A DNA stretch of 44,285 bases from a virus. Its lineage: Duplodnaviria; Caudoviricetes. How positions within the stretch are numbered: position 1 is the first letter of the stretch; every line of letters starts with the position of its first letter. Shown here in pieces: positions 1-44,285 of this stretch. The stretch covers positions 1 to 44,285 of IMG/VR virus record IMGVR_UViG_3300034008_000051; one strand, 5' to 3'. A program made the position numbers and the translations under genes. A model generated the notes under the pieces. It saw nothing but the letters and a program-made list of their open reading frames with translations, did not search any database and was not told where the DNA came from.

Positions 1-187
1 TCGCTACGAATCCGCTACACTAAGCGGATGCGAGCAGCGTGTGGTGAGTGTGTGGTAACCCTGTGTGGGAACCGTGGGAATCAACGGTTCGTCGCATCTG
101 GTTTTCGCCGCCGTTTACCCTGGTCAAACGCCTGGACGCGCACTGGCGAAGTCTGCGTGGGCTGTTGTATGAAGCCACTCAGCTCGG
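1..187. repeat. Terminal direct repeat, left copy (187 bp)
   Basis: Bases 1-187 match 44099-44285 except A128 vs C44226; consistent with a circular or terminally redundant genome. Confidence 0.95.
2..82. promoter_or_regulatory. Candidate oriT/replication origin: hairpin plus iteron-like repeats upstream of the relaxase
   Basis: ATCCGCT(10-16)/AGCGGAT(23-29) inverted repeat extendable to 2-39; TGTGTGGTAACC(49-60), TGTGTGGGAACC(62-73), GTGGGAATC(74-82); TGTGGATAA DnaA box lies just across the circular junction (44088-44096). Confidence 0.45.
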
Positions 188-208
188 CGCCGGGATCGCG
201 GCGCGAGC

Positions 209-940
209 ATGGGGGTCTGCATGATGTTCAGTGACACATCCTCCGTCGACCTCTCACCCCGTGACCTATCCATCGTCCAGCTGGTCGCCCGCTTCAAGCA
301 GGTCGCATCCAGCCACATCCACGAACTACTTTTCACAGACATCAAGAGCCACACGCCAGCAGACCGAGCACTGCGAAGACTGACGGCGAGCGGGCACCTG
401 CAACGTGTCGAGCGTCGGATAGTCGGGGGAAGTCGGGGCGGGTCCGGCCAGTACGTCTACCAGTTGGGTCGGCGTGGCTTCTATGTCTACTTCGAGGGCA
501 GGTATGCACCGTGGCGAACTGTCAACTACCACGCCCTAGCCATAGTGGACTCATACGTTGTCATGCGCCGGCTAGAACGGGCGGGCTACGTAGCTATAGC
601 CGGCGTGTCTACCGAGCCTGATTGCTGGGTGAAAGTTGGCGGGAACGAGCTGAAGCCGGACCTGTACCTGGAACTGGCACGGGCAACGGGCGAGCGGCTG
701 AAGCTGTGGCTGGAGATCGACATGGGTACAGAGGGTCAGCGACAGATAAAAGACAAGCTAGAGCGGTATTGGCGGGCCTACAACGAAGCCGATTGGCCGG
801 TATTCCCGCGCACCATATGGGTAGCCGTGGACGCCGAGCGCGAGAAGGAACTGGCTTGGTTGATATCTCAAGGCCCGCCCGACGCACGCATACTATTTCA
901 GGTGACGACGCTGGCCGGTCTGCCTTCGTTGTTTGTGTGA
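209..940 (+). CDS. Replication-relaxation family protein (Replic_Relax, MOBC-like PD-(D/E)xK relaxase)
   Basis: N-terminal winged-helix-like segment (LSPRDLSIVQLVARFKQV...RALRRLTASGHL), GGSGQYVYQLG, H..AI, and KPD..L...WLEIDMGTE....IKDKLERY nuclease motif; true start may be ATG 221 or 224. Confidence 0.85.
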   Translation: MGVCMMFSDTSSVDLSPRDLSIVQLVARFKQVASSHIHELLFTDIKSHTPADRALRRLTASGHLQRVERRIVGGSRGGSGQYVYQLGRRGFYVYFEGRYAPWRTVNYHALAIVDSYVVMRRLERAGYVAIAGVSTEPDCWVKVGGNELKPDLYLELARATGERLKLWLEIDMGTEGQRQIKDKLERYWRAYNEADWPVFPRTIWVAVDAEREKELAWLISQGPPDARILFQVTTLAGLPSLFV

Positions 941-941
941 C

Positions 942-999
942 TTATCCACAGCTTTTTACCAGAAATAGTATTGACTATTCCTCATGCTAAGCGCATACT
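942..999 (+). promoter_or_regulatory. DnaA box plus sigma70-type promoter
   Basis: TTATCCACA at 942-950, then AATAGTA-TTGACT(971-976)-17 nt-CATACT(994-999). Confidence 0.7.
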
Positions 1000-1075
1000 G
1001 TAAGTATTGCATAAAACGCAACGCACCTTAGAAAACTCATGCGCTCATTGTCAGTAAGTAAAGGGAGACAATGAC

Positions 1076-1267
1076 ATGACAGAAAAAAGCACAGCATCTA
1101 CGCGGTACGGTGACATCATGTACTACTACTCACGAGAAGTTGAACCACGACCTTTTAGTCGGTTCACGTCAGATGATGCAGAGCAACAAGCGAACGATGA
1201 TTGGATTGAACGCGCATTGTCGTGGGGTAGTCATCACTTCGACGAGTATGGTCGCGTGGTTGCCTAG
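1076..1267 (+). CDS. Small hypothetical protein
   Basis: 63 aa, GGGAG ribosome-binding site, directly downstream of the promoter. Confidence 0.6.
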   Translation: MTEKSTASTRYGDIMYYYSREVEPRPFSRFTSDDAEQQANDDWIERALSWGSHHFDEYGRVVA

Positions 1268-1282
1268 CGGTTTACCGCTGGC
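1261..1282 (+). repeat. 22-bp gene-end repeat, copy 1
   Basis: TGCCTAGCGGTTTACCGCTGGC, 20/22 identical to 1502-1523; hairpin-forming. Confidence 0.8.
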
Positions 1283-1325
1283 CATGAGGGCATGAGTGAA
1301 TAGCAACAATTGATGGAGGAAACAT

Positions 1326-1508
1326 ATGAAATACTACTACTCGAATGTTTATCAAACGCTGTACTTTCTCGAAAACCGCACATTGTGTGGCGTTACGCGG
1401 AATAGTAGCGGCTTGCTCGATGCCGATGAGGCTTTCGTAGTAAACCTCGACAATGGCGAGGTCTCTCGCGAGTTTTACATTGAGGTCGCAGCCCGGTTGA
1501 GTGCCTAG
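1326..1508 (+). CDS. Small hypothetical protein
   Basis: 60 aa, strong GGAGG ribosome-binding site. Confidence 0.7.
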   Translation: MKYYYSNVYQTLYFLENRTLCGVTRNSSGLLDADEAFVVNLDNGEVSREFYIEVAARLSA

Positions 1509-1523
1509 TGATTTACCGCTGGC
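1502..1523 (+). repeat. 22-bp gene-end repeat, copy 2
   Basis: TGCCTAGTGATTTACCGCTGGC. Confidence 0.8.
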
Positions 1524-1563
1524 AAGTAGCGTGATAACTCATTAACGTAAGAGGAATAACTCT

Positions 1564-1764
1564 ATGACAACAGATACAGAACCAACGATGCAACTGGAGA
1601 TCTACAAGCGTACGCTGCTAATGCTTGAGCGTGAGAAGGCCGTCGTGGAGTTGGATGAACCGACCGGCGAGTTCAAAACAGAGTATCTGGTGGCGCTCGA
1701 CTATACGCTTGATATGGTGCGGCAAAATATCGCCCGCCTGAGTGCGGGGTCACCTTCACGATGA
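1564..1764 (+). CDS. Small hypothetical protein
   Basis: 66 aa, GAGG ribosome-binding site, ATGA overlap with the next ORF. Confidence 0.65.
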   Translation: MTTDTEPTMQLEIYKRTLLMLEREKAVVELDEPTGEFKTEYLVALDYTLDMVRQNIARLSAGSPSR

Positions 1765-1961
1765 AGCAGCGAAACGCTGTCCGCAACGCTCGCCTCAAGG
1801 CTGCGCAACTCCGCTGGGCTAGGGAAGATCGCGAACGGGGCTTCCCTGTCCGGCACAGGCGAATCTCTTGCATGGAACGAAAGAATCAACAACTTAATGA
1901 AGACCTGCTAGTAGTAGCCGCACTCGCGTTTGTATGCGTGTGGGTGGAACTGGCGGGGTAG
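1761..1961 (+). CDS. Small basic protein with C-terminal hydrophobic segment
   Basis: 66 aa, coupled to the previous ORF by an ATGA overlap. Confidence 0.5.
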   Translation: MKQRNAVRNARLKAAQLRWAREDRERGFPVRHRRISCMERKNQQLNEDLLVVAALAFVCVWVELAG

Positions 1962-1969
1962 GGAGTTAT

Positions 1970-2314
1970 ATGAGGGAATTGAAGTTTAGAGCGTGGGACG
2001 GGTCCAAGTTATATGAAGTGAAACATTTGGACTGTTTGCCAACGGGGGAGGCTTACGCCTCGGCGGCTGGTTACCTAGACAGTACGGCGGTCATGGAGTA
2101 CACCGGTATGAAGGACAAGAACGGCGTGGACATCTACGAGGGGGATATCATCGGGGTGGACGGAAAGGCTTGGCCGCGTGCGGTTGATTTTGAGGATGGC
2201 CGCTTCTGTCTTGGAGGTGGGGCACTGGTCGAGCGGATGGGTGACTGGTCAAGGCGTGGCGACCGTTACGAAGTCGTGGGCAACATCTATGAGAACCCGG
2301 GGCTACTGGCATGA
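1970..2314 (+). CDS. YopX family phage protein
   Basis: MRELKFRAWD...MEYTGMKDKNGVDIYEGDII...EVVGNIYENP signature; start moved to ATG 1970 after GGGAG. Confidence 0.92.
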   Translation: MRELKFRAWDGSKLYEVKHLDCLPTGEAYASAAGYLDSTAVMEYTGMKDKNGVDIYEGDIIGVDGKAWPRAVDFEDGRFCLGGGALVERMGDWSRRGDRYEVVGNIYENPGLLA

Positions 2315-2333
2315 GCGGGCCGCTTTTTGGTAC

Positions 2334-2880
2334 TCTAAGCAGCCTCTCTAATTCCCGGTAACGGGGGAGGCACCTCACGTTCGACTGGCTTAGAAGTGGG
2401 GACCGTTCAGAGTCTTCGTACTTGCTGAGCTAGTGGCGATTTGATAGATACAGCTACTGAACATCTCAGGCTACGGAGAGCAAGCGAAGCGCGGTAGTGA
2501 CGTTGTAGACAGGTGGTGAGGGAGTTTTCGGAAATGTGAGACACCGAGTAATTACTTCGGCTCAACTAATCCCTAGCTAGCGTAAACTTCCCCTCCAGCT
2601 GTCTACAATGGTATCTGCTTGTTAATGATCAGCGGGGGACTATCCGCACTTCCGCACCAGGCGCTTTACGGTAGCACTAAACGTCGTTGTACTGTGGCCT
2701 CATCAAGTAGGCAAATGGTCAGGGAAGAAGTACGTTACGCTTCGACTAGGGTGCGACCCTATCCAGATACTCTACTGGTATTGCCCAACCAACTGCCTAC
2801 TTGTCAAGGTGTGTGCCGCCCGTACTGAGTAATGTTTTGAGTCGTCTCAGTAGGTGATTCGGTGGCTGTACTGGCCTGCC
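2334..2880. ncRNA. Candidate large structured non-coding element (RNA or ssDNA), about 550 nt
   Basis: No credible ORF; stems 2334-2340/2388-2394, 2354-2365 (GTAA loop), 2405-2410/2457-2462, 2503-2512/2599-2608, 2704-2713/2794-2803, 2747-2761, 2823-2829/2846-2852. Confidence 0.5.
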
Positions 2881-2895
2881 TAGACTGATAGATGC

Positions 2896-2924
2896 TTGAC
2901 AAATAGAGAGCCAGTTCTCATAAT
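2896..2924 (+). promoter_or_regulatory. Sigma70-type promoter
   Basis: TTGACA(2896-2901)-17 nt-CATAAT(2919-2924). Confidence 0.7.
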
Positions 2925-2939
2925 CATGTATGTGATGGC

Positions 2940-2963
2940 AGCCCCTCGAAAGAGGGGTTTTCT
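2940..2963 (+). terminator. Intrinsic terminator-like hairpin
   Basis: GCCCCTC-GAAA-GAGGGGT followed by a T run. Confidence 0.7.
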
Positions 2964-3050
2964 ATTTGCGTGTGATGGCAAATATCCCTTGCATTTAAGC
3001 ACGATACGCGGCCTATTGCAACTTGCTACGGCTTATGGACGGGAAAAGTA

Positions 3051-3079
3051 TTGACTATTCATGGCGCATATGCTAGTAT
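3051..3079 (+). promoter_or_regulatory. Sigma70-type promoter
   Basis: AAGTA-TTGACT-17 nt-TAGTAT; shares AGTATTGACTATTC with the promoter at 971. Confidence 0.65.
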
Positions 3080-3110
3080 TAAAAGGTAAGTTAAACAAGG
3101 CAACATAAAT

Positions 3111-3530
3111 ATGAAGACAAAGGAACAAGCACTAGATACCACCCAGCCCGTCGAGCTCACGACGTTCCTGGAAGGCCAGGCCGCTCCCTTCGTCATCCGT
3201 GGCGACTACGAAGCCGTGGCGCCCATGGCTGAAGCCCTGCGCCAGGCTGACGAGCAGTTACCTACACAGGTGGCAACTCGTACCCGCAAGGTGGCTCAGG
3301 CAGCCGTTGAAGCAGTCTCCGCGCCGATACAGACAGGCCTCGGCCGGGTCGCGGTTGATGTCAAGGCGATCGTGTACGACAAGCTGCACCGCACGAACTT
3401 CTACGACCTGCTCCGCGACAAGCGGAACACTGAGCGTGATCTTCGGTTCGCCGGCAGTCTCGGCCTGTTCCAGGAAGAGGTCTGCGCCAAGCACCGCAAG
3501 GCCCTTCAGTCGGTACGGAGGGTCCGGTAA
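3111..3530 (+). CDS. Hypothetical protein
   Basis: 139 aa ORF directly downstream of the promoter. Confidence 0.7.
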   Translation: MKTKEQALDTTQPVELTTFLEGQAAPFVIRGDYEAVAPMAEALRQADEQLPTQVATRTRKVAQAAVEAVSAPIQTGLGRVAVDVKAIVYDKLHRTNFYDLLRDKRNTERDLRFAGSLGLFQEEVCAKHRKALQSVRRVR

Positions 3531-3610
3531 TGGCCTTCGAGCAGATAGCGACCGGCATCGTCTTAGCGCTCATGATGGTGCTGGCCGTGATAAATAAGAT
3601 TGTCGCTTAG
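3530..3610 (+). CDS. 26-aa hydrophobic peptide (MAFEQIATGIVLALMMVLAVINKIVA)
   Basis: TAATG coupling to the upstream stop; single predicted TM helix; not in the ORF track. Confidence 0.45.
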   Translation: MAFEQIATGIVLALMMVLAVINKIVA

Positions 3611-3637
3611 AGTCAGTAGGCTTATAATCAGTCGCAT

Positions 3638-3781
3638 ATGGAATTGTCTGACTACCTAGCAAAATCAACCGAAGCAAGCGGAGTGCCGTTGAAGGTAGCG
3701 GATAAGCCAGTGCTACGCGACATCGCCGCTCTGCTCATCGAGGGCAACCCCGAGTTCATGCCTCGAACGAAAGCCGCCTGA
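3638..3781 (+). CDS. 47-aa protein convergent on the integrase; candidate directionality factor or accessory protein
   Basis: MELSDYLAKSTEASGVPLKVADKPVLRDIAALLIEG...; own promoter TTGTCG(3600-3605)-17-TATAAT(3623-3628); no Shine-Dalgarno; stop 3 nt from the integrase stop. Confidence 0.55.
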   Translation: MELSDYLAKSTEASGVPLKVADKPVLRDIAALLIEGNPEFMPRTKAA

Positions 3782-3784
3782 CCG

Positions 3785-5239
3785 TCAGACCTTCCACTGG
3801 ATGTCTATCCACTGCGGATCGAACCTGTGTCGCTGACCGTCCCTCGTGACGTAGAACGGCTTGGTGCTGCCGGGGTTGACCACGATCTTGTCGATCAGCA
3901 TGGCAAGCAGCGTCCGGCGCCACGTATCACTGCCGCTGTTGTCCCACGCTGCCCGGACTGAATCACCTACAGGAATGAGACCGGCGGCCGTCCTGTGGCG
4001 GTTCACGACCTCCAGCTCGCGCTCCAGCCGTTCAAGCTCCGCCTCGGCCGCTCCCTTGGCTCTGGAGAACTGTTCCCGGTCAAGCAGCCCCGTTGCGTAG
4101 TCCTCGACGAGCGCGTCCAGTCGGGTCTTGGCGGCCTGGCGGCTGTGGAGCAGCAGGGAGATCGCGACATCTGTGTCGTTATCTCGCTTCAGCAGGTTGC
4201 CGAGCTCCGGTGTATCGAGCCGGTACAGGACGCACTCTTTTATCCAGTCGTCGAGCGCCTCAGCGTTGCGCCGTATCCGGTTGCAGCCGAACTTTTTGCC
4301 CTGAGCGTCCGTGCGCTTGGCACAGAAGTAGACGCGGCGCGGTGGGAAGCTGGGGCCAAGGTCGTACATGCGGGTGCCGCTGAGCGGGTTACCGCACCTG
4401 CCGCAGTAGGCGAGGCCGGTCAGTAGGTACTTGCGGGCGATGGGGCCCTTGAAGTTGGACTGCTCACGCCTGAGCCTGATGGTTAGCTGCAGCTGTTCCC
4501 ACGTAGCAGGGTCGAAGACCGGGTCCCAGACAGCGGGGTAATCAACGCCGTCGTACTCTCTTAAACCGGCGTTGCGCTTGCGGTTGAGCAGGTTGCGCAC
4601 GGTGATGTTGTGCCATGGCCTCCCCATGCTGGTCGCGTGACCCTGCTCGTTGGCCCAAATGGCGATCTCTTTGAATGAGTGGCCAGCCAAGTAGCGCCGG
4701 GCCATCTCTCGCATGATGGCGGCCTCAGTCTCGTTGATCGTCACCATGTCCGCCTCGTACCCAAACGGGCGGCGTGAGCCGTGTGGTTTGCCGGCGCGGG
4801 CCTTCTGAGCGTTGGCCCGGATCTGACGGTCACTCTTCTGCTCGATCTCGTAGCGTGCCCAGCCGGCGAGCTGGTCGGCCATCATGCGGCCCATCGCGGT
4901 CGACATGTCCAGGTCAGAGCCTCGAGCTAGGGCGATGATCGTCCGGTGCTTCTGGCAGGACTCGATCAGCCGGACGGTGTCCTGGCGGTTGCGCGTCAAT
5001 CTGTCCAAGCTCCAGGCGATGATGACGTCAATCTCGCCGCGGCCAAGGGCGTCCATCATCTTCTCGAACTCGGGGCGGTGCACCTTGCCCGAAGCCGATG
5101 TGTCATTGTCGATATAAGTGGTAGTCAATTGCCAGCCGCGGACGTCCGCTAGCTTTGCACAATCTTCTTCTTGGCGACTGACTCCCAGTGATTCACCTGT
5201 CTTATCCAGTGATATCCGTAGGTATAGAACTGCCCGCAT
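3785..5239 (-). CDS. Large serine recombinase (integrase)
   Basis: YLRIS catalytic Ser, RPEFEKM, AWSLDRLTRN, recombinase domain (PFGY), zinc ribbon (LLTGLAYCGRCG...YFC...C), coiled coil. Confidence 0.95.
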   Translation of the reverse strand: MRAVLYLRISLDKTGESLGVSRQEEDCAKLADVRGWQLTTTYIDNDTSASGKVHRPEFEKMMDALGRGEIDVIIAWSLDRLTRNRQDTVRLIESCQKHRTIIALARGSDLDMSTAMGRMMADQLAGWARYEIEQKSDRQIRANAQKARAGKPHGSRRPFGYEADMVTINETEAAIMREMARRYLAGHSFKEIAIWANEQGHATSMGRPWHNITVRNLLNRKRNAGLREYDGVDYPAVWDPVFDPATWEQLQLTIRLRREQSNFKGPIARKYLLTGLAYCGRCGNPLSGTRMYDLGPSFPPRRVYFCAKRTDAQGKKFGCNRIRRNAEALDDWIKECVLYRLDTPELGNLLKRDNDTDVAISLLLHSRQAAKTRLDALVEDYATGLLDREQFSRAKGAAEAELERLERELEVVNRHRTAAGLIPVGDSVRAAWDNSGSDTWRRTLLAMLIDKIVVNPGSTKPFYVTRDGQRHRFDPQWIDIQWKV

Positions 5240-5249
5240 GTAATGGTTC

Positions 5250-5289
5250 CTGCTTACTGGAGTTCATTATGAATGTTTCCAGTAGGTAG
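5250..5289. other. Candidate attP (imperfect inverted repeat just upstream of the integrase)
   Basis: CTGCTTACTGGA-GTTCAT-T-ATGAA-TGTT-TCCAGTAGGTAG; position is typical for serine-integrase attP sites. Confidence 0.35.
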
Positions 5290-5476
5290 TCAACACATCT
5301 TCCTCACGTTTGTCAACCCAACTAGCGGTTGACCAAGGGCTTTCTTCGGCCGTGACCGCCTTGCACCGTTGTAACGACACGCTGACGCTAGGCCAAACTA
5401 CACCCAAGTAATTCCACGATCTAGAACCAACACGGCGTGGCGCACCGCAAAAAACGTGGGCGTGGCATCAACGTTA

Positions 5477-5512
5477 TTTACAGGACCACCGAGCCCGCGG
5501 TGGTCCTGTAAA
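5477..5512. repeat. Perfect 15-bp inverted repeat
   Basis: TTTACAGGACCACCG-agcccg-CGGTGGTCCTGTAAA between the integrase and the transfer operon. Confidence 0.85.
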
Positions 5513-5598
5513 CCCCAAGGGAGTCACATCGTGACCAGCAACGCGGTGCTCGCCACCGTGAACCCCACCCCCCACCCCACCCGCCCTGAGGAGGCGTC

Positions 5599-5916
5599 AT
5601 GAGCTCACTCGTAGTGCAAGGCCGCCAGGACTACGACTGGCGGCTGCCCAGCCTTCGAAGCACGAGATCGACACGCAAGCAGGCTGAACGTCTGCAAGCA
5701 CAGCTAGCGATCGAGGAGGAGCGTCGCATCATCCAGCATGTACGGGTCCGAACAGTGACAGAGGTCGGAGTGGCTGCCATGCAAGGAACAAGCACTGTCA
5801 CGCAGGTCGCAGAGGCCGAAGCAGCTGCTGTACCCGGCGAACGTCACAGGGTCGACGCCATCGCTGACGCGACCGCTGCCGCCCTGTTGAAGATCGTCAT
5901 GGAGACAGGGCAGTGA
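5599..5916 (+). CDS. Hypothetical protein, first gene of the putative transfer operon
   Basis: GAGGAGG ribosome-binding site; Ala-rich helical 105 aa. Confidence 0.8.
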   Translation: MSSLVVQGRQDYDWRLPSLRSTRSTRKQAERLQAQLAIEEERRIIQHVRVRTVTEVGVAAMQGTSTVTQVAEAEAAAVPGERHRVDAIADATAAALLKIVMETGQ

Positions 5917-6215
5917 TCCTGGCCTCCGTCTTGCTGCTTCATCACATCGAGGGAGTCTGCAAGCCGCTGTCATGGGCGAAGCAGGCAGCGGTGGACTTCC
6001 TGGCCCGCACGGCAGCTCGGGATCGCACCGGCGCCGTCGAGCGGGCTGAGCAGGTCAAGGCAGAGCGTCTCGCTCGAGCCCAGCGGGCAGGGCAGAAGCA
6101 GGAACCTAAGGTCACCGAGAAGCCGATGCCGGCCATCACGCAAGGTGATCCCAGTAGTCACGAGTTCAGCGCACAGTTCAGAGAGAGCGAGGAATACTTA
6201 TGGAAACAGTCGTGA
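5913..6215 (+). CDS. Hypothetical protein
   Basis: GTGA overlap with the previous gene; 100 aa. Confidence 0.6.
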   Translation: MILASVLLLHHIEGVCKPLSWAKQAAVDFLARTAARDRTGAVERAEQVKAERLARAQRAGQKQEPKVTEKPMPAITQGDPSSHEFSAQFRESEEYLWKQS

Positions 6216-6427
6216 TTGTCACAATGCTTCTATCCCTGGCAATCGGCGTGATTCTTGGTGGAGCATTCTTCATGCACCGGTATGAGAAACAGCTGAATCA
6301 CCTCGGCCTGCTTCACACGATAGTCGGGATTGAGCAGCAGGGGATCGAGGCCCAGAAGCTCATTATGTCGGTGACCGGCAATGCTATTGCTGATATCCGT
6401 CGCCCGCGACTGGTCGACAGGAATTAG
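6200..6427 (+). CDS. Small membrane protein
   Basis: N-terminal TM helix; GAGG ribosome-binding site. Confidence 0.7.
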   Translation: METVVIVTMLLSLAIGVILGGAFFMHRYEKQLNHLGLLHTIVGIEQQGIEAQKLIMSVTGNAIADIRRPRLVDRN

Positions 6428-6430
6428 GAG

Positions 6431-6592
6431 ATGTTCCGCAGGTTCTGGGAACTGATCATCGTCCTGATAGTGCTTGGTCTGCTCCTCCAGATCTTCGTCG
6501 AGACGGTCAGGCCGATGATGCCTTACATCATTCTGGCCGGCATCGCGTTGATAGCTGGTCGAGTGCTATATAGGCGTAACCAGAACTGGTAG
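6431..6592 (+). CDS. 53-aa two-TM membrane protein (MFRRFWELIIVLIVLGLLLQ...YRRNQNW)
   Basis: Read manually; AGGAG immediately upstream; two hydrophobic helices; directly precedes the coupling ATPase. Confidence 0.7.
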   Translation: MFRRFWELIIVLIVLGLLLQIFVETVRPMMPYIILAGIALIAGRVLYRRNQNW

Positions 6593-6648
6593 TAGCCAAC
6601 GAAGAGCACAAGGACGTCCTAATCTATAGCTGTTAAAGTATTGCATAT

Positions 6649-8916
6649 ATGGACGTCCTTGTGCTCTCATTGCTGGCGATCTTCGCAACCATAGTAACGG
6701 GAGTTCTCATGGTAAAGACGCTCGACCAAAAGCGCCGCGATCATGAACGTAAGACATACCGGCTGACTTTCCCGTCCGAACTATCCGAAGACACTGTCAC
6801 TGCCTGGATCAGGGCCATCTCCGGCACGCTCCGCTTCAGCTCGTCGCGTCTCGTTGGAGTGCCGACTATCGGCTTCGAGCTCTGGGCGACCAACGACGGG
6901 CTTGTCCACCGACTGAAAATCCCCTGGCAGCACGCCGACTACGTCATCTCACAGTTGCGCAGTCTGGTGCCCGGCATCCGGGTAACACCCGAAGACGAGT
7001 GGCCACACCGGAAGTGGGTCAAGGCCGTTGAGGTCGGTCTGACGCACTCCGGTCGCCCGCTGCGCATCTACTCGCCAGCCGACATGGCGTCGTCTCTTCT
7101 GGCCAGCGTGCAAGCCCTACAGGCCGATGAGACCGTCATGGTGCAGTGGGTGGTGACACCGTCCGTGCCGGTCCATCCGCCGATCTACAAGCAGGCCCAG
7201 ACGGACACGCTGGGGCTACGTGTGTTGAGCACCGGCACGATGGCCAACCGCGACGAGGTTCGAGCGAGGCGCGAGAAGCTGGCCGAGCCCAACGTGCTGG
7301 CTGTCCTGCGGGTGGCGTCGGTGGCGAAGACTCCAGTACGGGCCGAGCATCTGATTCACCGCGTCAGGGCCTCACTGTCAAGTACGCGTGGCCCATCTTC
7401 GCGGTTCGTGAAGCGCATGGTGCCGGCCAAGAAGTTGCAGCAACGCATAGACCTGGCCAGCGGTTCGGTCAACTTCCCGATTCAACTATCAGCGCCGGAG
7501 CTGACGGCGCTACTGGCTTGGCCGATAGGGAATCCGTTCGTCACCGGCCTACCGCCGCGCATGTCACGTCAGCTACCGGCCACTGACCTGGTGCCGCGGG
7601 AGGGCCGGGTGCTTGGCCGCTCGAACTTCCCGGGAAACGAGCGGCGTATAGCTATCGACTACACCGCGGCGCGCAAGCACATGCACATTATCGGTCCGAC
7701 CGGGGCAGGGAAGACGGCGCTGCTGGCCAACATGATGAAGCAGGACATGGAAGCCGGGCACGGCGTCATCCTGATCGACGGCAAGGGTGGATCGTCGAGC
7801 CTGTTCTCTGCTGCCCTGGATTACGTGCCCAAGAGGCGTGTGGACGACGTCATCGTGCTCGACGTGCAAGACACGTCAAGGCCTGTGGGTTTCAACATCC
7901 TCAAGCAGGGCGACCCACGGGTAGTCATCGACGAGCTGACTGACCTGTTTGAGTCGATGTATGACAGCAAGAGCGTCTGGACCCGCGAGATCCTGTACCA
8001 CGGGCTCAGGACGATCATCAGCGATCCAAGGCTGACGTTCATCGACCTCGGGCCACTGCTCGTTCCGATGTCTGAAGACGATGGCAAGTGGCGCGACAAC
8101 CTGATCAGAGGCCTGGACGACGTCGAGCTGCGGCAGTTCTGGCAGCGCTTCGAGAACCAGCCGCGCTCCGCGCAGGACCGCATCACACAGCCTGTAATGG
8201 ATAGAATCTGGCAGCTCAACGCCCGCCCGGAGATACGGAACATCATCGGGCAGAGTTCCTCGGGCTTCCTGATGTCGGACGTGGTGGCGCAGGGCAAGAT
8301 TCTGTTGGTCAACCTTGGCGGCCTGTCGATAGACACGGCCAGCCTGACCGGCACGCTGCTCATGAACGCGCTGTGGCACACCGTGAAGACAACGCCGGCC
8401 GACCCGCCTACCTACCTGTACCTCGACGAGTTCCAAAAGTTCATCCGGTTGCCAATCGACCCGGAGAGCATGCTGGCTGAGGCTCGAGGCTTTGGGCTGG
8501 GCATGACCCTGGCCCACCAGCACCTCAACCAGCTGCCAACGGAGCTGCGGCAGGCGGTGCTCGCCAATGCCCGCTCGAAGATCATCTTCCAAACCACGGC
8601 CGACGATGCCCGAATCATGTCGAGAGAGTTCGGCAGCACCGTCACAGACGACGACTTCATGCACCTCGGCAAATTTGAAGCGATCACCCGTATAGCTACG
8701 CCGGATGGCGTGAGCTCCCCATTGACCATGACCACCATGGAGCCGGCCAAGCCAGCCGGTACAGCGAAGGAAGTGCGCTATGTTTCTAGGCAAAAGCACG
8801 GCCGGCCGGCCCACGAAGTGGAGGCGGAGATTATCAAGCGCCGCACGGTCGAGGAAAAGAAGACGAACCGACCAAGGCCAAAGATCAGCGGCTGGGACAA
8901 GCCTGACGCGTCCTGA
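6649..8916 (+). CDS. Type IV coupling protein-like ATPase (VirD4/TraG/TrwB-related conjugative DNA-transfer family)
   Basis: N-terminal TM; Walker A HMHIIGPTGAGKT; VILIDGKG; Walker B YLYLDEFQKF; EARGFGLGMTLAHQHLNQL; preceded by extended -10 TGTTAAAGT (6631-6639). Confidence 0.88.
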   Translation: MDVLVLSLLAIFATIVTGVLMVKTLDQKRRDHERKTYRLTFPSELSEDTVTAWIRAISGTLRFSSSRLVGVPTIGFELWATNDGLVHRLKIPWQHADYVISQLRSLVPGIRVTPEDEWPHRKWVKAVEVGLTHSGRPLRIYSPADMASSLLASVQALQADETVMVQWVVTPSVPVHPPIYKQAQTDTLGLRVLSTGTMANRDEVRARREKLAEPNVLAVLRVASVAKTPVRAEHLIHRVRASLSSTRGPSSRFVKRMVPAKKLQQRIDLASGSVNFPIQLSAPELTALLAWPIGNPFVTGLPPRMSRQLPATDLVPREGRVLGRSNFPGNERRIAIDYTAARKHMHIIGPTGAGKTALLANMMKQDMEAGHGVILIDGKGGSSSLFSAALDYVPKRRVDDVIVLDVQDTSRPVGFNILKQGDPRVVIDELTDLFESMYDSKSVWTREILYHGLRTIISDPRLTFIDLGPLLVPMSEDDGKWRDNLIRGLDDVELRQFWQRFENQPRSAQDRITQPVMDRIWQLNARPEIRNIIGQSSSGFLMSDVVAQGKILLVNLGGLSIDTASLTGTLLMNALWHTVKTTPADPPTYLYLDEFQKFIRLPIDPESMLAEARGFGLGMTLAHQHLNQLPTELRQAVLANARSKIIFQTTADDARIMSREFGSTVTDDDFMHLGKFEAITRIATPDGVSSPLTMTTMEPAKPAGTAKEVRYVSRQKHGRPAHEVEAEIIKRRTVEEKKTNRPRPKISGWDKPDAS

Positions 8917-9046
8917 AGCGGTTTCAAGCCGCTTTCCCTGGCTGAGTCGCTGGTTCTCCAAGTTTGAGGCGCAGAGGTACTCACACAGGCGCTACGTGCG
9001 TCCGTTGTGCACCTGCCAGCAGCAAAAAAATAGGAAGAGACGCTCC

Positions 9047-9244
9047 ATGGCAGGTGACAGTTTCGTCGAGCTAGGCCCGGAAGCTCGAGTTCAGGCGGCC
9101 ACACACGCTCTGGATACGATAGTTCGATTACGGCAGTATTCGGACGACAACATAGCCAGTGTGGATGATTCAGTAGCTAAGCTCAGAATAAAGATTGTAA
9201 CGGCTGTAGCCGAAGAGGCTGTCTTGAAAATTGCGTTCAGGTGA
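9047..9244 (+). CDS. Possible small hypothetical protein
   Basis: MAGDSFVELG... 65 aa with AGGA upstream; fills the gap between convergent units. Confidence 0.35.
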   Translation: MAGDSFVELGPEARVQAATHALDTIVRLRQYSDDNIASVDDSVAKLRIKIVTAVAEEAVLKIAFR

Positions 9245-9256
9245 CTTGTGTGTCTT

Positions 9257-10978: not shown

Positions 10979-10981
10979 GGA

Positions 10982-11335: not shown

Positions 11336-11338
11336 GGC

Positions 11339-12640: not shown

Positions 12641-12681
12641 GCTTATTGCTGCTTTCTTACTTTAGTTTATCACCGCTTCGT

Positions 12682-34057: not shown

Positions 34058-34735
34058 ATGCAAGCAAAACTTGTAGCGCTGCTGGTTGCCCTCGTCATGG
34101 GCTTCATTGCGCCACAGTCCGCCCAGGCCGCCCCCGCGCCTCAACTCAGGGCCGTACCGACGGTCACCCAGTCAGCTGCACCGTTGATCAGTGTCCCGAC
34201 CCACAAGCGGAAGTGGACGAAGGCCGAGAAGCGCGAGACGGGCACCGCGATCAAGATCAAGCAGAAGGCCCAGCGTGGCAAAAAGCTCTACTTCAACCGG
34301 ATGTGGAAGGTCACACACAACCGGAACACGATCACCCGCTTCATCTACGGTCACAAGTTGGCCGGGGGCAAGGTCGTCTACCCGAAGGCCAGAACGGCTG
34401 TGATGCAGCGGGCTGACACAGTCACAGACGCCATGGTCGCCAAGGCGCGGTGCAACGGTAAGACGGATGGAAGCTGGCAGCCGTACGGCTACCGCATCAG
34501 GTTGAACAGTTGCCACGCCCAACGGGCTGAGTACGCCGCGATCTACGCGGCAGCCACAGTCGCCTTCCTGGGGGCTGTGGTTCGCGGCAACCCGCGAACC
34601 AAGATCGTCGTCGCTGTGACGGAGTTCTTCTTCACGGTGGGGGCGATCCAGCTGGCCATCTGTAACCGGAACTCAAAAGGTGTCAGAATCTTCTACATCA
34701 CCGTCACCGGCAGCGCGTTCTGCCGCCAGCAGTAG
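34058..34735 (+). CDS. Secreted cationic protein with Cys-flanked hydrophobic C-terminus (bacteriocin-like candidate)
   Basis: Signal peptide ending AQA; Lys/Arg-rich; four Cys; hydrophobic hairpin; GAAGGA ribosome-binding site. Confidence 0.7.
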   Translation: MQAKLVALLVALVMGFIAPQSAQAAPAPQLRAVPTVTQSAAPLISVPTHKRKWTKAEKRETGTAIKIKQKAQRGKKLYFNRMWKVTHNRNTITRFIYGHKLAGGKVVYPKARTAVMQRADTVTDAMVAKARCNGKTDGSWQPYGYRIRLNSCHAQRAEYAAIYAAATVAFLGAVVRGNPRTKIVVAVTEFFFTVGAIQLAICNRNSKGVRIFYITVTGSAFCRQQ

Positions 34736-34745
34736 GGGAGTGGTC

Positions 34746-34961
34746 ATGAGCTCAGCCCGTAGGCGTCTGCTTGGCAACGTCCTGATCTACGGCGTGAGCG
34801 GCGGCGCAGTCCTGGCGCTGCTCGTCCTCATGATTATCGCCTGGCCTCAGCCCTCGTCGCCCACGGGCCAGCTCATCGGGTACTGGATGCTGCCCATCAT
34901 GGCGGTCGGCATCGGTGCGGCCCACGCCGGCTCAAGGGTGAAGGCCACAGCCAGAACATAG
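34746..34961 (+). CDS. Small two-TM membrane protein (immunity candidate)
   Basis: GGGGAG ribosome-binding site; 71 aa; directly after the secreted protein. Confidence 0.7.
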   Translation: MSSARRRLLGNVLIYGVSGGAVLALLVLMIIAWPQPSSPTGQLIGYWMLPIMAVGIGAAHAGSRVKATART

Positions 34962-35048: not shown

Positions 35049-35387
35049 ATGGCATCCAGGGTCGTACTGGTCGACGATCTCGACGGAAGCGAAGGTGCGG
35101 AGACGATTACCTTCACTATCGACGGGACCACAACGGAGATTGACCTCTCTAAGCAGAACGCTGCCAACCTGCGCAAGGCGCTTTCTGAGTACCAAGCGCA
35201 TGGGCGGACTGTCCAGGCGACGCGCTCTGTAGCGGCGCCAAGCCGGCGCTCCAGTACAGGTCAGGGGAGTAGTCCCGCCCATCTGGCTCAAGTCAGGGAG
35301 TGGGCTAACAACCACGGATTCACGGTGTCCACCCGTGGCCGTATTCCGGGGAACGTCATGGCTGCCTACGAAGACGCTCACAAGTAA
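35049..35387 (+). CDS. lsr2: Lsr2 nucleoid-associated protein
   Basis: LVDDLDGSE..ETITFTIDG...EIDLS dimerisation domain; VREWA..HG..VSTRGRIP AT-hook. Confidence 0.95.
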   Translation: MASRVVLVDDLDGSEGAETITFTIDGTTTEIDLSKQNAANLRKALSEYQAHGRTVQATRSVAAPSRRSSTGQGSSPAHLAQVREWANNHGFTVSTRGRIPGNVMAAYEDAHK

Positions 35388-38566: not shown

Positions 38567-39088
38567 GTGAACTCTGAATGGATCGGTCTGGCCGGCATCA
38601 TCGTCGGTGCTGCCGTAGCGCTCGTCAGCACAGCGCTGTCCCCGAGGGTCACGGCTAGGCAGACCCATAAGCACTGGTTGCGGGACAAGAGGGCCGAGTC
38701 ATACGAGAAGTTCTTCCTCGAGTTGCACGACATACTCACCCGTGAGGGCGTGCAGTACGAGCCGAGGGCCACACCGGAGGCGGTACCACCTGCAACCTCA
38801 GCAGAGTTGGCGGCTCGCATTCAGCGTCTGGGACGAGCGGTCAGTCAGGTGCAGTTGTACGCCTCCACCACGATGCGGACGCTATCGAATGCGGTTGCGG
38901 TCCGCTATGTCGTCCTCGTGTGCAGTACGGAGCCTGACGACCCCAACAATCGTAAGGCGGCATATCAGGAATTTGTCCAAGCCGCGCACATCGTGGACCA
39001 ACAAGTCCGTAAGGAGTTGAACGTCGAGGATCAGGACTCTAGGACTCGGCTGAGCGTCCTGCGCGCAAGATTCGATCGGTCGCGCTGA
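38567..39088 (+). CDS. Membrane-anchored moron protein
   Basis: N-terminal TM (WIGLAGIIVGAAVALVS) then a W.RDKR.ESY..F helical domain. Confidence 0.7.
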   Translation: MNSEWIGLAGIIVGAAVALVSTALSPRVTARQTHKHWLRDKRAESYEKFFLELHDILTREGVQYEPRATPEAVPPATSAELAARIQRLGRAVSQVQLYASTTMRTLSNAVAVRYVVLVCSTEPDDPNNRKAAYQEFVQAAHIVDQQVRKELNVEDQDSRTRLSVLRARFDRSR

Positions 39089-39824
39089 ACACCTGCCTGA
39101 TCGCGACGTCCGCGGGCCGCTCCCGCCGCAGCCAGCCTTGGATATAGCCCCTGCTCTCGCTGGCCTGCTGCTCGGTGAGCACGTCGAGCTCGTGCATGCT
39201 GAGGTACGACGTCGCCTCAGCCTGGAACTCCATGACGCCGCGGTGCGTGCCGTACTCGGCAACCTTGGCTGGTTCGGTGTGGCCCAGCACGATGTGACCG
39301 ATCTCGTGAAACGTCGTCCCGGTTGGGTCAGTCGCTACCGGGTTGAGCGCGAACTCCCGGCCGATTGAGTATCCCTGGGTGTTGCCGTCGAGCAACTGGA
39401 ACGGTACCTGACGGATGTCCAGCGCCTCGAGCGCCACAGGCAGCTTCCAGTCAGGTGTCTCCACAGGCGGGAGCTCGTCACCCTCCGTTTCGCTGACGGT
39501 GAACAAGCACTTGACCGGCTTGAACTTGGTCAGCTTTTTGGGTTCACCCTGGTCGTCGAGCTGGTCCTTGAGCGTGACGGTGATGGGCCGAATGATCTCT
39601 TTGGCCTTGCTGCCACGAAGGACCTGCCGGCCGATGGCCTTCCAGCGCTGGTAGGTGGCCACTGGTTCAAGGACGCCCTGGCTGAGCAGCAGCATTTGGT
39701 TCATGAAGCTGTAGTTGTAAAAACGGTTGTAGGTGTTGCCGACGCTGCCTGGCGCGGTCAACGCAGTTTCGATGAGCTTGCCCCAGTCGATGTCACGGGT
39801 TGTTGATTGTTTCTCAGTGGTCAT
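39039..39824 (-). CDS. ArdC-like ssDNA-binding protein with zincin-like C-terminus
   Basis: FYNYSFMNQML, ATYQRWKAIGRQVLRGSKA, FTVSETEG, HEIGH, EFQAEATSY, SRGYIQGW; start at MTTEKQ after GAGG. Confidence 0.82.
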   Translation of the reverse strand: MTTEKQSTTRDIDWGKLIETALTAPGSVGNTYNRFYNYSFMNQMLLLSQGVLEPVATYQRWKAIGRQVLRGSKAKEIIRPITVTLKDQLDDQGEPKKLTKFKPVKCLFTVSETEGDELPPVETPDWKLPVALEALDIRQVPFQLLDGNTQGYSIGREFALNPVATDPTGTTFHEIGHIVLGHTEPAKVAEYGTHRGVMEFQAEATSYLSMHELDVLTEQQASESRGYIQGWLRRERPADVAIRQVFSATDRILRAGRSAES

Positions 39825-42149: not shown

Positions 42150-42366
42150 TTAGTTAATAATCCCTGTGATCACTCGGGTGATCACTCGGGCGATCAGCTC
42201 GCCTAAGGACACGCTGTAGTCCTCGACCTGGTTTCCGAACTGCGGCCATAAGGCGCAGACGATGACGACGGCCCCAATGAGCCAGCCGGTCCAGGCGAGA
42301 GAGTCGAAGAGTTTGGCGCCGTTGCTCTTTAAGGTCTTCGAAGTCAAGCTTGAAATCATCGAGCAT
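42150..42366 (-). pseudogene. Small membrane gene apparently split by a frameshift near 42280
   Basis: Coupled start MLDDFKL...RLDRL is in one frame; the TM-containing LIGAVVIVCALWPQ...IIN is in another. Confidence 0.4.
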
Positions 42367-42566
42367 TACTCCTGGACCTTCTTAGGGCGGCGGCTGATAC
42401 GTCCGCCTTTGGCGCCCGCTATGCGGGCGCGCTGCCGGTCCGCCGCGAAGCCACCGGTGTGGCCCCTCCTGCCGCCAATGCTGCCAATCTTCGCGTAGTG
42501 GTCTGCGCCGTATTTCCTCTTGAGCGTGATTGCCGCAGCGCGTCCCCCTTCAGTAGTTCCTGCCAT
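42366..42566 (-). CDS. KGG-repeat (general stress/YciG-like) protein
   Basis: HYAKIGSIGGRRGHTGGFAAD..RARIAGAKGGRISRR; AGGAG ribosome-binding site. Confidence 0.85.
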   Translation of the reverse strand: MAGTTEGGRAAAITLKRKYGADHYAKIGSIGGRRGHTGGFAADRQRARIAGAKGGRISRRPKKVQE

Positions 42567-42592
42567 TGATTTGTCTCCTTGTCAAGTTGTAG

Positions 42593-42751
42593 TTAGTTGT
42601 TGGCGCCTCGGCCACAGTCAGGACATCCGCCTGGCTGCCACTTGCGACAGGGGTAGCCGATATCCTCACGCGGACAAGAGCGCACGAGCCTCAGAAGCAG
42701 CCAGGCGACGAATACGGGCACCACGGCGAATAGTAAGACGGTGGCCATCAT
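42593..42751 (-). CDS. 52-aa TM plus Cys-rich peptide
   Basis: MMATVLLFAVVPVFVAWLLL...C...C..CPDC; GGAGG ribosome-binding site. Confidence 0.5.
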   Translation of the reverse strand: MMATVLLFAVVPVFVAWLLLRLVRSCPREDIGYPCRKWQPGGCPDCGRGANN

Positions 42752-42840
42752 GACTCTGCCTCCGGCCAGTCGGGCTCTCGAGGATCAGTAACGTTGAGGA
42801 ACTCGTTGTCTGTTAGGTAGAAGATGTCATATTTGCTCAT
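42748..42840 (-). CDS. 30-aa acidic peptide
   Basis: MSKYDIFYLTD...; ATGA-coupled at both ends. Confidence 0.45.
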   Translation of the reverse strand: MSKYDIFYLTDNEFLNVTDPREPDWPEAES

Positions 42841-43436
42841 GCCTTAACCTTCAACCCTTCCAACACCCTGTTGGCCTCTGACTCGGTCATCTTGTGCGGA
42901 TCGACCACGTCAAAGCTGTCACGCATGATGTCGGCCATGTCTTCGTCGAGGATGTCTTGCTTACGCATCTCGTCCACTATGGTGCGGATCTGTAGCTTGG
43001 TTGCAGGAGCAGGGGCCGAGCCGACAGACGGTCTGTTCAACCGCGTGCCGGTGCCTATGCCGCTTTCCAGCTCTTCCTTGGTCCAGAGATCCAGTGCCAC
43101 GCCGAAGCGCATTGCAGCGTTGCGGAGGGCGTCACCGATCAGCTCCTTGATGCTGCTGCTTCCATCGCCGTAGCCGAGCCTAGTGACGCCGTGGATAGTG
43201 AGTTTGATCCAGAGGTTGCCCTTGCTGTCGAGCCGAGGCAGGGAGTTCTCATCCACAGATAGTGGCTCCCAATCCCAGTTCTCAGGGCCAGCGACGGTGT
43301 TTAAGCGATCCGTGACGGCCGCGTGGCCCACGTACTTGAGCTTGGCGCCGCCTCGACTCATCTCACCGATGGCCTCCGGTGGGAACGGCTTACGCAGCTC
43401 GTCCCAGATACTTGTGGTGTCCTTCTTGTCTGTCAT
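42837..43436 (-). CDS. Rad52/Rad22-family (Sak-like) ssDNA annealing protein
   Basis: LRKPFP...LKYVGHAAVTDRLN...W...KELIGDALRNAAMRFGVALDLW. Confidence 0.85.
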   Translation of the reverse strand: MTDKKDTTSIWDELRKPFPPEAIGEMSRGGAKLKYVGHAAVTDRLNTVAGPENWDWEPLSVDENSLPRLDSKGNLWIKLTIHGVTRLGYGDGSSSIKELIGDALRNAAMRFGVALDLWTKEELESGIGTGTRLNRPSVGSAPAPATKLQIRTIVDEMRKQDILDEDMADIMRDSFDVVDPHKMTESEANRVLEGLKVKA

Positions 43437-43460
43437 ATCGTTGTGCCTGTATTACGGTTG

Positions 43461-43991
43461 CTAAAAGAGAAGTCCGATCATGAACCCCAGTACGAGGACG
43501 CCGGCGCCTTGCCAGAGTCCGATATGCTTGCCCTTCTGGTCCTCTTCGCCCGCCGCGTACCCTGACTGGTAGCCGAAGTCGTAGCTCTTCATCGTCAGCG
43601 ACGTTGAGGCAGGGGCTGGGGGAGTGGAAGTGTCGAGGTCGGCCAACCACTCCGTACTATCCGTGGCATCATGAGGAATGTCGACTTCCCGCAACCGTTC
43701 TACTGACTCTTCTGTGAGTCGGAGTTTACCGGCTTCCGGATCGTCGGCATCAACTGTTCGTACTTCGAGTACAGTTGTCTCAGTTCCGGGCTTGTCCGCA
43801 GGCACAGCGTCATGACTATCGTCGCCATGCTTATCTTCCGGCCGGCTAGTTCGCTTTGCTGGCTTGCGTACTCGCGCAGTGCGAGGTTGAATGGTAAGCT
43901 TACCTTCCAGGTCACCGCCACCAGTTTGGCGCCCCACCGCTTGTTGGGCAGAAGCCACTTGGGGTTTGGCATCTAGTGTTCCTTTCGTCAT
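43461..43991 (-). CDS. Low-complexity protein with C-terminal TM anchor
   Basis: AGGAG ribosome-binding site; first gene after the leftward promoter. Confidence 0.7.
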   Translation of the reverse strand: MTKGTLDAKPQVASAQQAVGRQTGGGDLEGKLTIQPRTARVRKPAKRTSRPEDKHGDDSHDAVPADKPGTETTVLEVRTVDADDPEAGKLRLTEESVERLREVDIPHDATDSTEWLADLDTSTPPAPASTSLTMKSYDFGYQSGYAAGEEDQKGKHIGLWQGAGVLVLGFMIGLLF

Positions 43992-44030
43992 ATAGTTGAT
44001 GTACTCCTGTGTCGTTAGTTAACAATCATC

Positions 44031-44096
44031 ATTATGGATTATGCTTATACAAAGTCAATACTATTTGTGCTAGATAATGCATATTCCTGTGGATAA
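44031..44096 (-). promoter_or_regulatory. DnaA box plus sigma70-type promoter for the leftward arm
   Basis: Minus strand: TTATCCACA(44096-44088)...AATAGTA-TTGACT-16 nt-CATAAT. Confidence 0.7.
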
Positions 44097-44098
44097 GT

Positions 44099-44285
44099 TC
44101 GCTACGAATCCGCTACACTAAGCGGATGCGAGCAGCGTGTGGTGAGTGTGTGGTAACCCTGTGTGGGAACCGTGGGAATCAACGGTTCGTCGCATCTGGT
44201 TTTCGCCGCCGTTTACCCTGGTCAACCGCCTGGACGCGCACTGGCGAAGTCTGCGTGGGCTGTTGTATGAAGCCACTCAGCTCGG
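44099..44285. repeat. Terminal direct repeat, right copy
   Basis: Matches 1-187 with one mismatch. Confidence 0.95.

Follow-up and report, generated by a model that had tools for sequence, protein, structure and literature searches.

A probably temperate phage genome joining a backbone related to Saccharibacteria phages to a predicted integrative-mobilizable module of actinobacterial type

The virus record IMGVR_UViG_3300034008_000051 was analysed over its entire length of 44,285 nucleotides, here called the window. It encodes a phage in which genes of saccharibacterial type stand beside an integration and predicted mobilization module of actinobacterial type; Saccharibacteria are minute epibionts of actinobacteria. 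A terminal repeat of 187 nt was taken as an assembly overlap, and the window therefore represents a complete circle of 44,098 bp. Its 68 open reading frames (ORFs) were scanned against Pfam and PHROGs. The scan revealed a Mu-like head and a siphovirus-type tail, together with a large serine integrase, a VirD4-like coupling protein, a Replic_Relax protein (the relaxase), Lsr2, ArdC-N, YopX, a Rad52-like annealing protein, a LysM-SLT protein and a KGG protein (Table 1). All genes named in an earlier interpretation made from the letters alone (the sequence-only reading) were thus present. With the terminase subunits TerS and TerL, portal, HK97-type capsid, tail tube and tape measure, the window is a tailed phage (Caudoviricetes), and with an integrase whose relatives are found integrated, probably a temperate one. 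The 68 ORFs gave no match to any family of repressors, primases, helicases or transposases. A CI-type repressor in particular was not found by Pfam or PHROGs, many small ORFs having no family assignment. The likeness to Mu concerns the head genes only, with no match to a transposase (DDE transposase A, MuB). The window contains no VirB4 or other channel genes, and no tRNA genes were found.

An assembly chimera was ruled out. In sequencing run X1, a contig that closes on itself spans window positions 1-12000 at an even depth of 15.9, so that the module junctions examined in these 12 kb lie on one contig, and the same mix of genes recurs in independent genomes. Run X1 is labelled as a biocrust metagenome and may be where the window comes from; a second run, X2, has a 0.10 share. 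The 44,081-bp contig of run X1 has both of its ends at window 5554-5572, where the sequence is rich in C; candidate causes are a dropout in sequencing, variation of the tract or an att branch.

Concerning the saccharibacterial side, the KGG protein, which the sequence-only reading had likened to Saccharibacteria proteins, is an orthologue of a conserved chromosomal gene of Saccharimonadia. It was sampled genome by genome in Saccharimonadia, Patescibacteria and Actinomycetota (below, G- and L-numbers designate genomes and loci examined). A match was present in 135 of 151 Saccharimonadia genomes, at up to 74% identity, and in 2 of 41 genomes of a sample spanning the patescibacterial phylum, both of them Saccharimonadia. 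Among 151 Actinomycetota, 16 genomes were matched; 15 scored 29 bits or less, and the only strong, full-length copy lies inside the prophage of G001 described below. The gene is chromosomal and next to a gene that we take to be ROK-like in most of eight Saccharimonadia loci, and is also found in two Saccharibacteria prophages. Over loci L143-L162 it proved near-universal and mostly single-copy in Saccharimonadia and was not found in the other Patescibacteria sampled; it is possibly a class marker often carried by Saccharimonadia phages. The SLT transglycosylase, likewise proposed to be saccharibacterial, was matched in 4 of 151 Saccharimonadia (36-39%), two inspected copies lying in prophage remnants, but also in 5 of 151 Actinomycetota, more weakly and mostly in part, and its atlas neighbours are mainly phage clusters. 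SLT is thus weaker evidence than KGG for the link. An ORF at 3111-3530, considered for its saccharibacterial look, matched 0 of 41 Saccharimonadia in a search run without a positive control and was set aside. The window thus shares proteins with both Saccharibacteria genomes and their prophages. In L069, a member of the same phage family, four adjacent genes (36-49%) are shared with a Saccharibacteria contig from a metagenome-assembled genome (MAG), L006.

The virion block has its counterpart in two complete phages, G1182 and G1183 (GC 0.45-0.46), which carry it in the same order. Identities to the window were 75 and 71% for the capsid, 60 and 64% for the tube, 57 and 59% for TerL and 55 and 56% for the portal, respectively. 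G1182 can be classed as a presumed Saccharibacteria phage because three of its adjacent early genes are shared with the integrated prophage of a Saccharibacteria genome, G004 (60, 78 and 44%). Neither phage had a match for the window's relaxase, coupling protein, integrase, Lsr2 or ArdC, and the tail-tip genes of the window differ from theirs. Deposited phages were more distant: the window belongs to none of their cultured-phage clusters, its capsid had a best match of 38% in Pseudomonas Mu-like phages, its TerL gave a single weak match and its coupling protein matched 36 records at 20-23%, mostly Bacillus phages. The 573-aa tail-tip protein had no match among them, and the 433-aa one matched phages from mixed hosts. 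Scans of viral contigs with TerL or the coupling protein as single proteins returned nothing, and alignment-based queries were needed. With a TerL alignment, one genome per species (185,579) yielded nine loci, from five Saccharibacteria MAGs, three actinobacteria and one Aquaspirillum bin. In a quick TerL tree of 36 rows, the TerLs of the actinobacterial prophages in G001, G002 and G1067 and of a Gordonia contig form one clade (support 98). Its sister group consists of three TerLs from prophages of oral Saccharibacteria (100), and this half of the tree includes two more Saccharibacteria TerLs.

On the actinobacterial side, all 253 matches of Lsr2 among cultured phages belong to phages of Mycobacterium, Streptomyces, Gordonia or Curtobacterium. 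The endolysin, too, behaved as the sequence-only reading had expected, with four of six matching records from Glutamicibacter and Actinoplanes phages (36-49%) and the other two from an unassigned phage; OX376641.1 has only the lysin in common with the window and was rejected as a relative. The coupling protein follows four small genes, in the actinobacterial-like operon that had been described, and is 48-49% identical to copies in two non-phage actinobacterial islands, G734 and G806, where a relaxase adjoins it. Islands of this type are, judged by similarity, the best candidates for the donor type. Their relaxase scores had suggested prophages, a possibility rejected when no virion-gene match was found in 100 kb of each.

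The integrase, whose N-terminus had also been likened to actinobacterial elements, gave 120 listed homologues, six with a taxon: four actinobacterial, one from a Saccharimonadales MAG and one from a gammaproteobacterial MAG. We inspected 23 of the 160 loci obtained in an integrase-alignment search. In four of the 23, the integrase is abutted by a truncated cpaF-like gene (GC 0.64-0.71; closest fragment, 58% identity across 174 residues), and none of the 23 had Saccharibacteria flanks. In two phages a 3' piece of nucS, a gene of actinobacteria and archaea, lies beside the integrase, PF01939 being confirmed for L295. One of the two, G707, is a complete close relative of the window, with identities of 58% for the relaxase, 62% for the coupling protein and 50% for the integrase; it also has a gene for WhiB. 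The insertion targets cluster in pilus- or competence-related genes that are pilin-like, cpaF-like or comM-like (L022:10200, L025:5460; L194:330; L397:16130; L259, L219, L220, L225), the names cpaF, comM and Flp pilin/DUF4244 being those we presume from motifs. Insertion into such genes could change phage or epibiont attachment and DNA uptake.

Relatives of the window reside in actinobacterial chromosomes. Dietzia natronolimnaea JCM 11417 (G001) harbours a prophage of about 55 kb in a 1.23-Mb contig (GC 0.55-0.62, flanks 0.65-0.78), which splits a small pilin-like host gene with both junctions visible. Antrihabitans sp. YC2-6 (G002) harbours one of about 45 kb (GC 0.47-0.57 against 0.60-0.67), with a tyrosine integrase and a tRNA-Leu at its edge. 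When 201 genomes of the Dietzia/Antrihabitans family were searched with the relaxase profile at E≤1e-45, four were matched, the two seeds and two further genomes, G1067 and G1016. Their prophages (GC 0.58 in hosts of 0.68-0.70) are inserted in a comM-like gene, with both junctions seen for G1067 and the left junction alone for G1016. Relaxase, coupling protein, Lsr2, ArdC and KGG are present in all four prophages and a serine integrase in three; the KGG copies are 45-62% identical to that of the window. As the head modules of the four differ from the window's, the family is defined by the shared module and a Saccharibacteria-type backbone rather than by one virion type. The dual signature is real and family-wide, and the genes do not all fall within the phages of a single phylum. 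A Gordonia sedimidis contig (L007; 13 kb, coverage 1.08, isolate assembly) carries family-type head genes without a host flank and is a candidate free phage, subpopulation or contaminant; it and the Aquaspirillum bin contig were left out of the integration evidence.

The relaxase of the family belongs to a phage-specific clade. We found 186 further homologues and none among 72,556 plasmids. The profile detected 47 viral loci, 20 of 301 Saccharimonadia genomes (best score 147 bits; coupling protein adjacent in 11 of 12 fetched), 14 of 401 Actinomycetota (only the seed genome above 156 bits) and 22 of 301 genomes in the order of G001. In the tree, from which re-fetched duplicates, identical rows and matches below 170 residues were left out, a single clade (support 86) unites the window and the four actinobacterial prophages with 35 viral records and contains no row from a Saccharimonadia genome. 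Island-type relaxases from both phyla intermingle in a separate clade (99). No phage-clade relaxase, and by this measure no family prophage, was present in the 301 Saccharimonadia genomes sampled, which are mostly incomplete. Unpublished genomes (G250, G393, G573, G306, G323, G353, G425) entered the relaxase and KGG tallies and the relaxase tree; no conclusion depends solely on them. Four Saccharimonadia islands with coupling protein and relaxase (L083, L090, L093 and, from unpublished G250, L094) have a GC of 0.61-0.70 and group with actinobacterial relaxases, recent transfer or bin contamination being the candidate explanations. Distant coupling proteins with weak relaxase matches also occur on unrelated viral records (L082, L080, L079; one of 132,562 bp), and the pair may recur in phages beyond this family.

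In the window, the relaxase lies 5.7 kb from the coupling protein, so that the compact order coupling protein-relaxase-integrase is absent; few members, L296 and L297 among them, have the two genes side by side. Its predicted structure (pLDDT 92.8) combines a winged helix with a restriction-endonuclease-like domain, and Foldseek gave no match at E≤0.001, the weak matches being winged helix-turn-helix proteins, FokI and NgoMIV. The DnaA box TTATCCACA occurs three times in the window against 0.12 expected (0 of 100 shuffles reached three), and the promoter motif AWAGTATTGAC four times against 0.04. A DnaA box adjoins three of the four motifs, in agreement with the linkage first noted from the letters. 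After one of the boxes, TGTG repeats cross the circular junction up to the relaxase start. Across 36 relatives, the stretches up to 600 bp from the relaxase gene make up 6.3% of the bases and contain 21 of the 63 DnaA boxes; such a box was found in 19 of the 36 loci, mostly 130-220 bp upstream, and the four closest relatives also have TGTG repeats after it. DnaA boxes were rejected as a host marker, with 0-2 per sampled chromosome set in Saccharimonadia and actinobacteria alike. Given this linkage and no other initiator detected in the window, the region appears to be an origin on which the relaxase acts, whether in replication, in transfer or in both.

Table 1. Features of the window (44,285 nt), with strand and basis of assignment
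Feature	Position	Strand	Basis or comment
Terminal repeat (assembly overlap)	1-187		99% identical to 44099-44285
Replic_Relax (MOB_C-type)	209-940	+	PF13814, E 1e-17; winged helix and restriction-endonuclease-like domain
DnaA box and sigma70-type early promoter	942-1000	+	Sequence motifs
YopX-family protein	1934-2314	+	Common in the phage family of the window
Further promoter-motif copies	3045, 37256, 44054		Motif AWAGTATTGAC
Candidate directionality factor (47-aa ORF)	3638-3781	+	Proposed from homologues, small ORFs flanking related integrases
Large serine integrase	3785-5239	-	Family scan; relatives split actinobacterial genes
Imperfect inverted repeat 5' of integrase start	5255-5284		Overlaps promoter-like sequence; candidate attP or operator, from sequence reading
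Four small genes 5' of coupling protein	5599-6592	+	Last two with membrane segment
VirD4-like coupling protein	6649-8916	+	PF10412/PF12696/PF02534; N-terminal membrane segment, P-loop ATPase
Tail-tip and decoration genes, mosaic	9257-13439	-	Family scans, phage comparison
Holin-like gene and actinobacterial-phage-type endolysin	13442-14305	-	Endolysin itself 13643-14305 (-)
Virion block (hub, tape measure, tube, neck, Mu-like capsid, protease, portal, TerL, TerS)	16984-32282	-	Syntenic with phages G1182 and G1183
LysM and SLT transglycosylase	33253-33903	-	SLT relatives in Saccharibacteria prophage remnants
Lsr2	35049-35387	+	PF11774 and PF23359; predicted silencer of low-GC prophage
ArdC-type antirestriction/single-stranded-DNA-binding protein	39039-39821	-	PF08401; 42-66% in relatives
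KGG protein	42366-42566	-	PF10685, E 0.0012, marginally below cut-off; orthologue of conserved Saccharimonadia chromosomal gene
Rad52/Sak-like single-strand annealing protein	42837-43436	-	Family scans
Candidate origin (replication and/or transfer)	44054-44285		Leftward promoter motif, DnaA box 44088-44096, TGTG repeats; putative function

Some further features stand apart from these modules. A perfect 14-bp inverted repeat with an 8-nt loop (5477-5512), between the integrase and the coupling-protein operon, is a candidate terminator, operator or origin of transfer. An HNH endonuclease gene (14292-14807, minus strand) overlaps the endolysin start. Accessory genes of membrane or secreted type lie in and beside the late operon (27304-28059, minus; 32375-32950 and 33968-34961, plus), and comparable insertions, often on the opposite strand, occur in the Dietzia, Antrihabitans and G1067 prophages.

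Taken together, we consider it likely, with a probability of about 0.58, that the window is a temperate actinobacterial phage from a Saccharibacteria phage lineage that likely jumped hosts at the contact between epibiont and host. This reading builds on the directly observed chimeric gene set, the four integrated relatives, the split host genes and the relaxase-free sister phages. As relatives with the same gene mix sit inside actinobacterial chromosomes, the window is likely an actinobacterial phage and the family likely jumped from parasite to host; actinobacterial lysogeny holds for four relatives, and the window's own host is deduced from them. In the proposed scheme, recombination would have brought together a Saccharibacteria phage and an integrative-mobilizable element of actinobacteria with serine integrase, VirD4 and MOB_C. 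The integrase would insert the genome into actinobacterial genes, and Lsr2, proposed as the silencer since no CI-type repressor was detected, would keep AT-rich promoters silent in the lysogen. As no other replication initiator was detected, this role would likely fall to the relaxase, acting at the DnaA-box region next to it. Relaxase and coupling protein might also let the excised circle borrow a helper type IV secretion system (T4SS) for transfer from cell to cell, ArdC would protect the incoming DNA, and the actinobacterial-type lysin would release the progeny from the actinobacterium. The sequence-only reading had offered a phage bridging the two partners or an exchange of genes between them. 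Exchange is well borne out, by both signatures in actinobacterial prophages and a virion block tied to Saccharibacteria phages; present-day cycling between two hosts by means of relaxase and coupling protein is not.

Several observations weigh against this reading, among them the GC gap, the Saccharimonadia-like amino-acid and stop-codon use, the SSB tails and the missing LysB motif detailed below for the shuttle. Neither relaxase nor KGG had a match in 50,697 deposited phage records. The best taxon-named integrase match (42%) and the sole taxon-named relaxase match (52%) come from contigs binned to Saccharimonadales. The window's TerL is set apart from those of the actinobacterial prophages, in the opposite half of the tree; this tree was a quick search with midpoint root and no outgroup, as was, over 89 rows and again with no outgroup, the relaxase tree. 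Junctions with actinobacterial DNA were seen in relatives, but none for the window itself among 12 of 31 loose ends. Lsr2, which had been called essentially actinobacterial, was over the cut-off in the chromosomes of 2 of 81 Saccharimonadia, of GC about 0.60 (0.59-0.60), so that the description holds with exceptions; these genes (L203, G010:C12:247126; L204, G042:C7:6768) were likely acquired from actinobacteria and do not lie in family prophages.

One alternative concerns the mechanism and is held only tentatively: coupling protein and relaxase form a phage replication or DNA-handling pair with no role in transfer, which would be compatible with either host. The relaxase, which may serve replication rather than transfer, is usually apart from the coupling protein and tied to the DnaA-box region, no other initiator and no channel genes were detected, and both genes occur on a viral record among the weak relaxase matches. 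Distant VirD4-like homologues (20-23%), with no link to an integrase, are carried by SPO1/SP-10-like phages of Bacillus, which are large lytic myoviruses. Opposed to this, the coupling protein has retained a membrane anchor, and its gene is preceded by small membrane genes. It also resembles at 48-49% the copies of non-phage islands where a relaxase adjoins, and is accompanied by ArdC in all four prophages; the same triad of serine integrase, VirD4 and MobC defines IME_Class_8 (PMC5357655).

As for the host, less probable than the jump, and in our view rather unlikely, is an ongoing shuttle: the family would grow lytically in Saccharibacteria (too) and persist in actinobacterial hosts as a prophage. 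Its relaxase and coupling protein, absent from the Saccharibacteria T4SS, would dock the DNA on the relaxase-less T4SS of the epibiont, or induced virions would infect the epibiont as a weapon of the host. We count for growth in Saccharibacteria the retention of KGG in all four actinobacterial prophages. In a composition comparison of prophages, hosts and Saccharimonadia, made with noisy gene calls and no ordinary-actinophage control, the prophages also remain about 10-14 GC points below their hosts, with lysine at 4.4-5.3% (hosts, 1.2-2.1%) and asparagine and stop-codon use (frequent TAG/TAA) like those of Saccharimonadia. Tails of single-stranded DNA-binding proteins (SSBs) end in IPF in 7 of 7 Saccharimonadia SSBs and in PPF in the main SSBs of five actinobacteria; two family proteins (G706, L069) have the IPF type, one identical to a Saccharimonadia SSB over 13 residues, and the window has neither. 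A LysB motif, in the form we presume for it, was absent from eight elements, four of them in hosts of the mycolic-acid family. The family has no cultured representative, and some of its contigs were binned to Saccharimonadales. Three reports add that T4SSs of the candidate phyla radiation mostly lack a relaxase, MOB_C being the commonest class (10.1101/2025.01.22.634366), that phages are co-targeted by Saccharibacteria and Actinobacteria spacers (PMC10746230) and that Xhp1 replicates to a limited extent in TM7x (PMC13578794).

Against a shuttle stand the missing phage-type relaxase in the 301 Saccharimonadia, although these are mostly incomplete and purely lytic growth would not be seen as a prophage, and tail-tip genes unlike those of G1182 and G1183. 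In the composition comparison already described, the C/G-ending codon ratios of the four prophages were nearest to actinobacterial chromosomes (0.79-1.20) and not to Saccharimonadia (1.35-2.96). Prophage GC tracks that of the host, at 0.53 where the host has 0.64 and at 0.58 where hosts have 0.68-0.73. The GC at third codon positions (GC3) of capsid, tube, TerL and portal is 0.72-0.84 in the window and 0.42-0.53 in G1182/G1183, a shift towards actinobacteria that is drift from a low-GC state. Lysin type, WhiB of G707 and codon ratios point to growth in actinobacteria, and the Saccharibacteria-like traits of the prophages can be relics of ancestry. Very improbable is a reading in which the window itself infects high-GC soil Saccharibacteria and carries the actinobacterial module as a mere passenger, integration in actinobacteria being confined to its cousins: the virion block is nearest G1182/G1183, GC (0.58) and GC3 (0.73) match G010/G042 and KGG is more similar to the chromosomal copies of Saccharimonadia (up to 74%) than to those of the prophages (45-62%), but the integrase is intact and of a clade seen at actinobacterial targets, the nearest module relative G707 carries the nucS piece, the lysin is actinobacterial and the virion-gene codon ratios are furthest from high-GC Saccharimonadia (3.96).

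Host jumps of phages across phyla are rarely documented, and the contact between Saccharibacteria and Actinobacteria has been proposed as a place for them. On our preferred reading of a host jump, a widespread uncultured family, with 186 further relaxase homologues and 35 viral records in the phage clade, would be the product of one. Should the shuttle prove real, this would be a categorically new kind of phage, the integrated copy would be a host-carried weapon against the parasite, and insertions in pilus genes and comM would reshape the host surface and DNA uptake. The culturable carriers Dietzia natronolimnaea JCM 11417 and Antrihabitans sp. YC2-6 make it testable whether the phage uses both partners, whether a Saccharibacteria T4SS moves DNA and whether a prophage is both packaged and mobilized. 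Caution is needed with host prediction and MAG binning, which will place such phages in Saccharimonadales though their relatives reside in actinobacteria.

Known systems, compared here by their published descriptions, share single traits with the window. That phages can touch both partners is established by spacer co-targeting (PMC10746230) and by Xhp1 of Schaalia odontolytica (PMC13578794). Like the window, the phages of that study (seven of nine co-targeted Saccharibacteria phages) combine Saccharibacteria-type proteomes with a reach into Actinobacteria; that link is by spacers alone, and the text contains neither 'relaxase' nor 'conjugat' (PMC10746230). The window's relatives, in contrast, have a mobilization module and were found physically inserted into chromosomes of actinobacteria. 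Xhp1, likened here by its description, is likewise an actinobacterial prophage that interacts with and replicates slightly in a Saccharibacteria epibiont; the accessible text mentions neither saccharibacterial ancestry nor a relaxase or coupling protein (PMC13578794). PF13814 corresponds to the MobC class, and the window has the signature of IME_Class_8, a class of integrative and mobilizable elements (IMEs), namely serine integrase, VirD4 and MobC with no T4SS channel of its own, but here the module lies inside a full virion-making genome, and the relaxase falls in a phage clade of its own, its gene mostly lying apart from that of the coupling protein (PMC5357655). CgpS of the CGP3 prophage, an Lsr2-like silencer in an actinobacterium, is also encoded by a foreign element, silencing in the window being predicted and likened by description (PMC5137423). 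ArdC is reported to widen the host range of conjugation (PMC7213743). The prophage of Rhodococcus erythropolis NI86/21, annotated with T4SS DNA-transfer, replication-relaxation and antirestriction proteins (GC 59.7% against 62.5%), is by its annotation probably a family member, and a Rhodococcus strain whose prophage is annotated with a coupling protein and a replication-relaxation protein lyses on mitomycin C, which we count towards growth in actinobacteria; the accessible text mentions neither Saccharibacteria nor Patescibacteria (PMC12915292). In the literature, covered mostly outside subscription papers, we found no description of Saccharibacteria-derived prophages in actinobacterial chromosomes or of such a phage-IME hybrid. 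The combination of a Saccharibacteria-phage backbone with an actinobacterial integrative-mobilizable module, in a temperate phage family resident in actinobacteria, is new.

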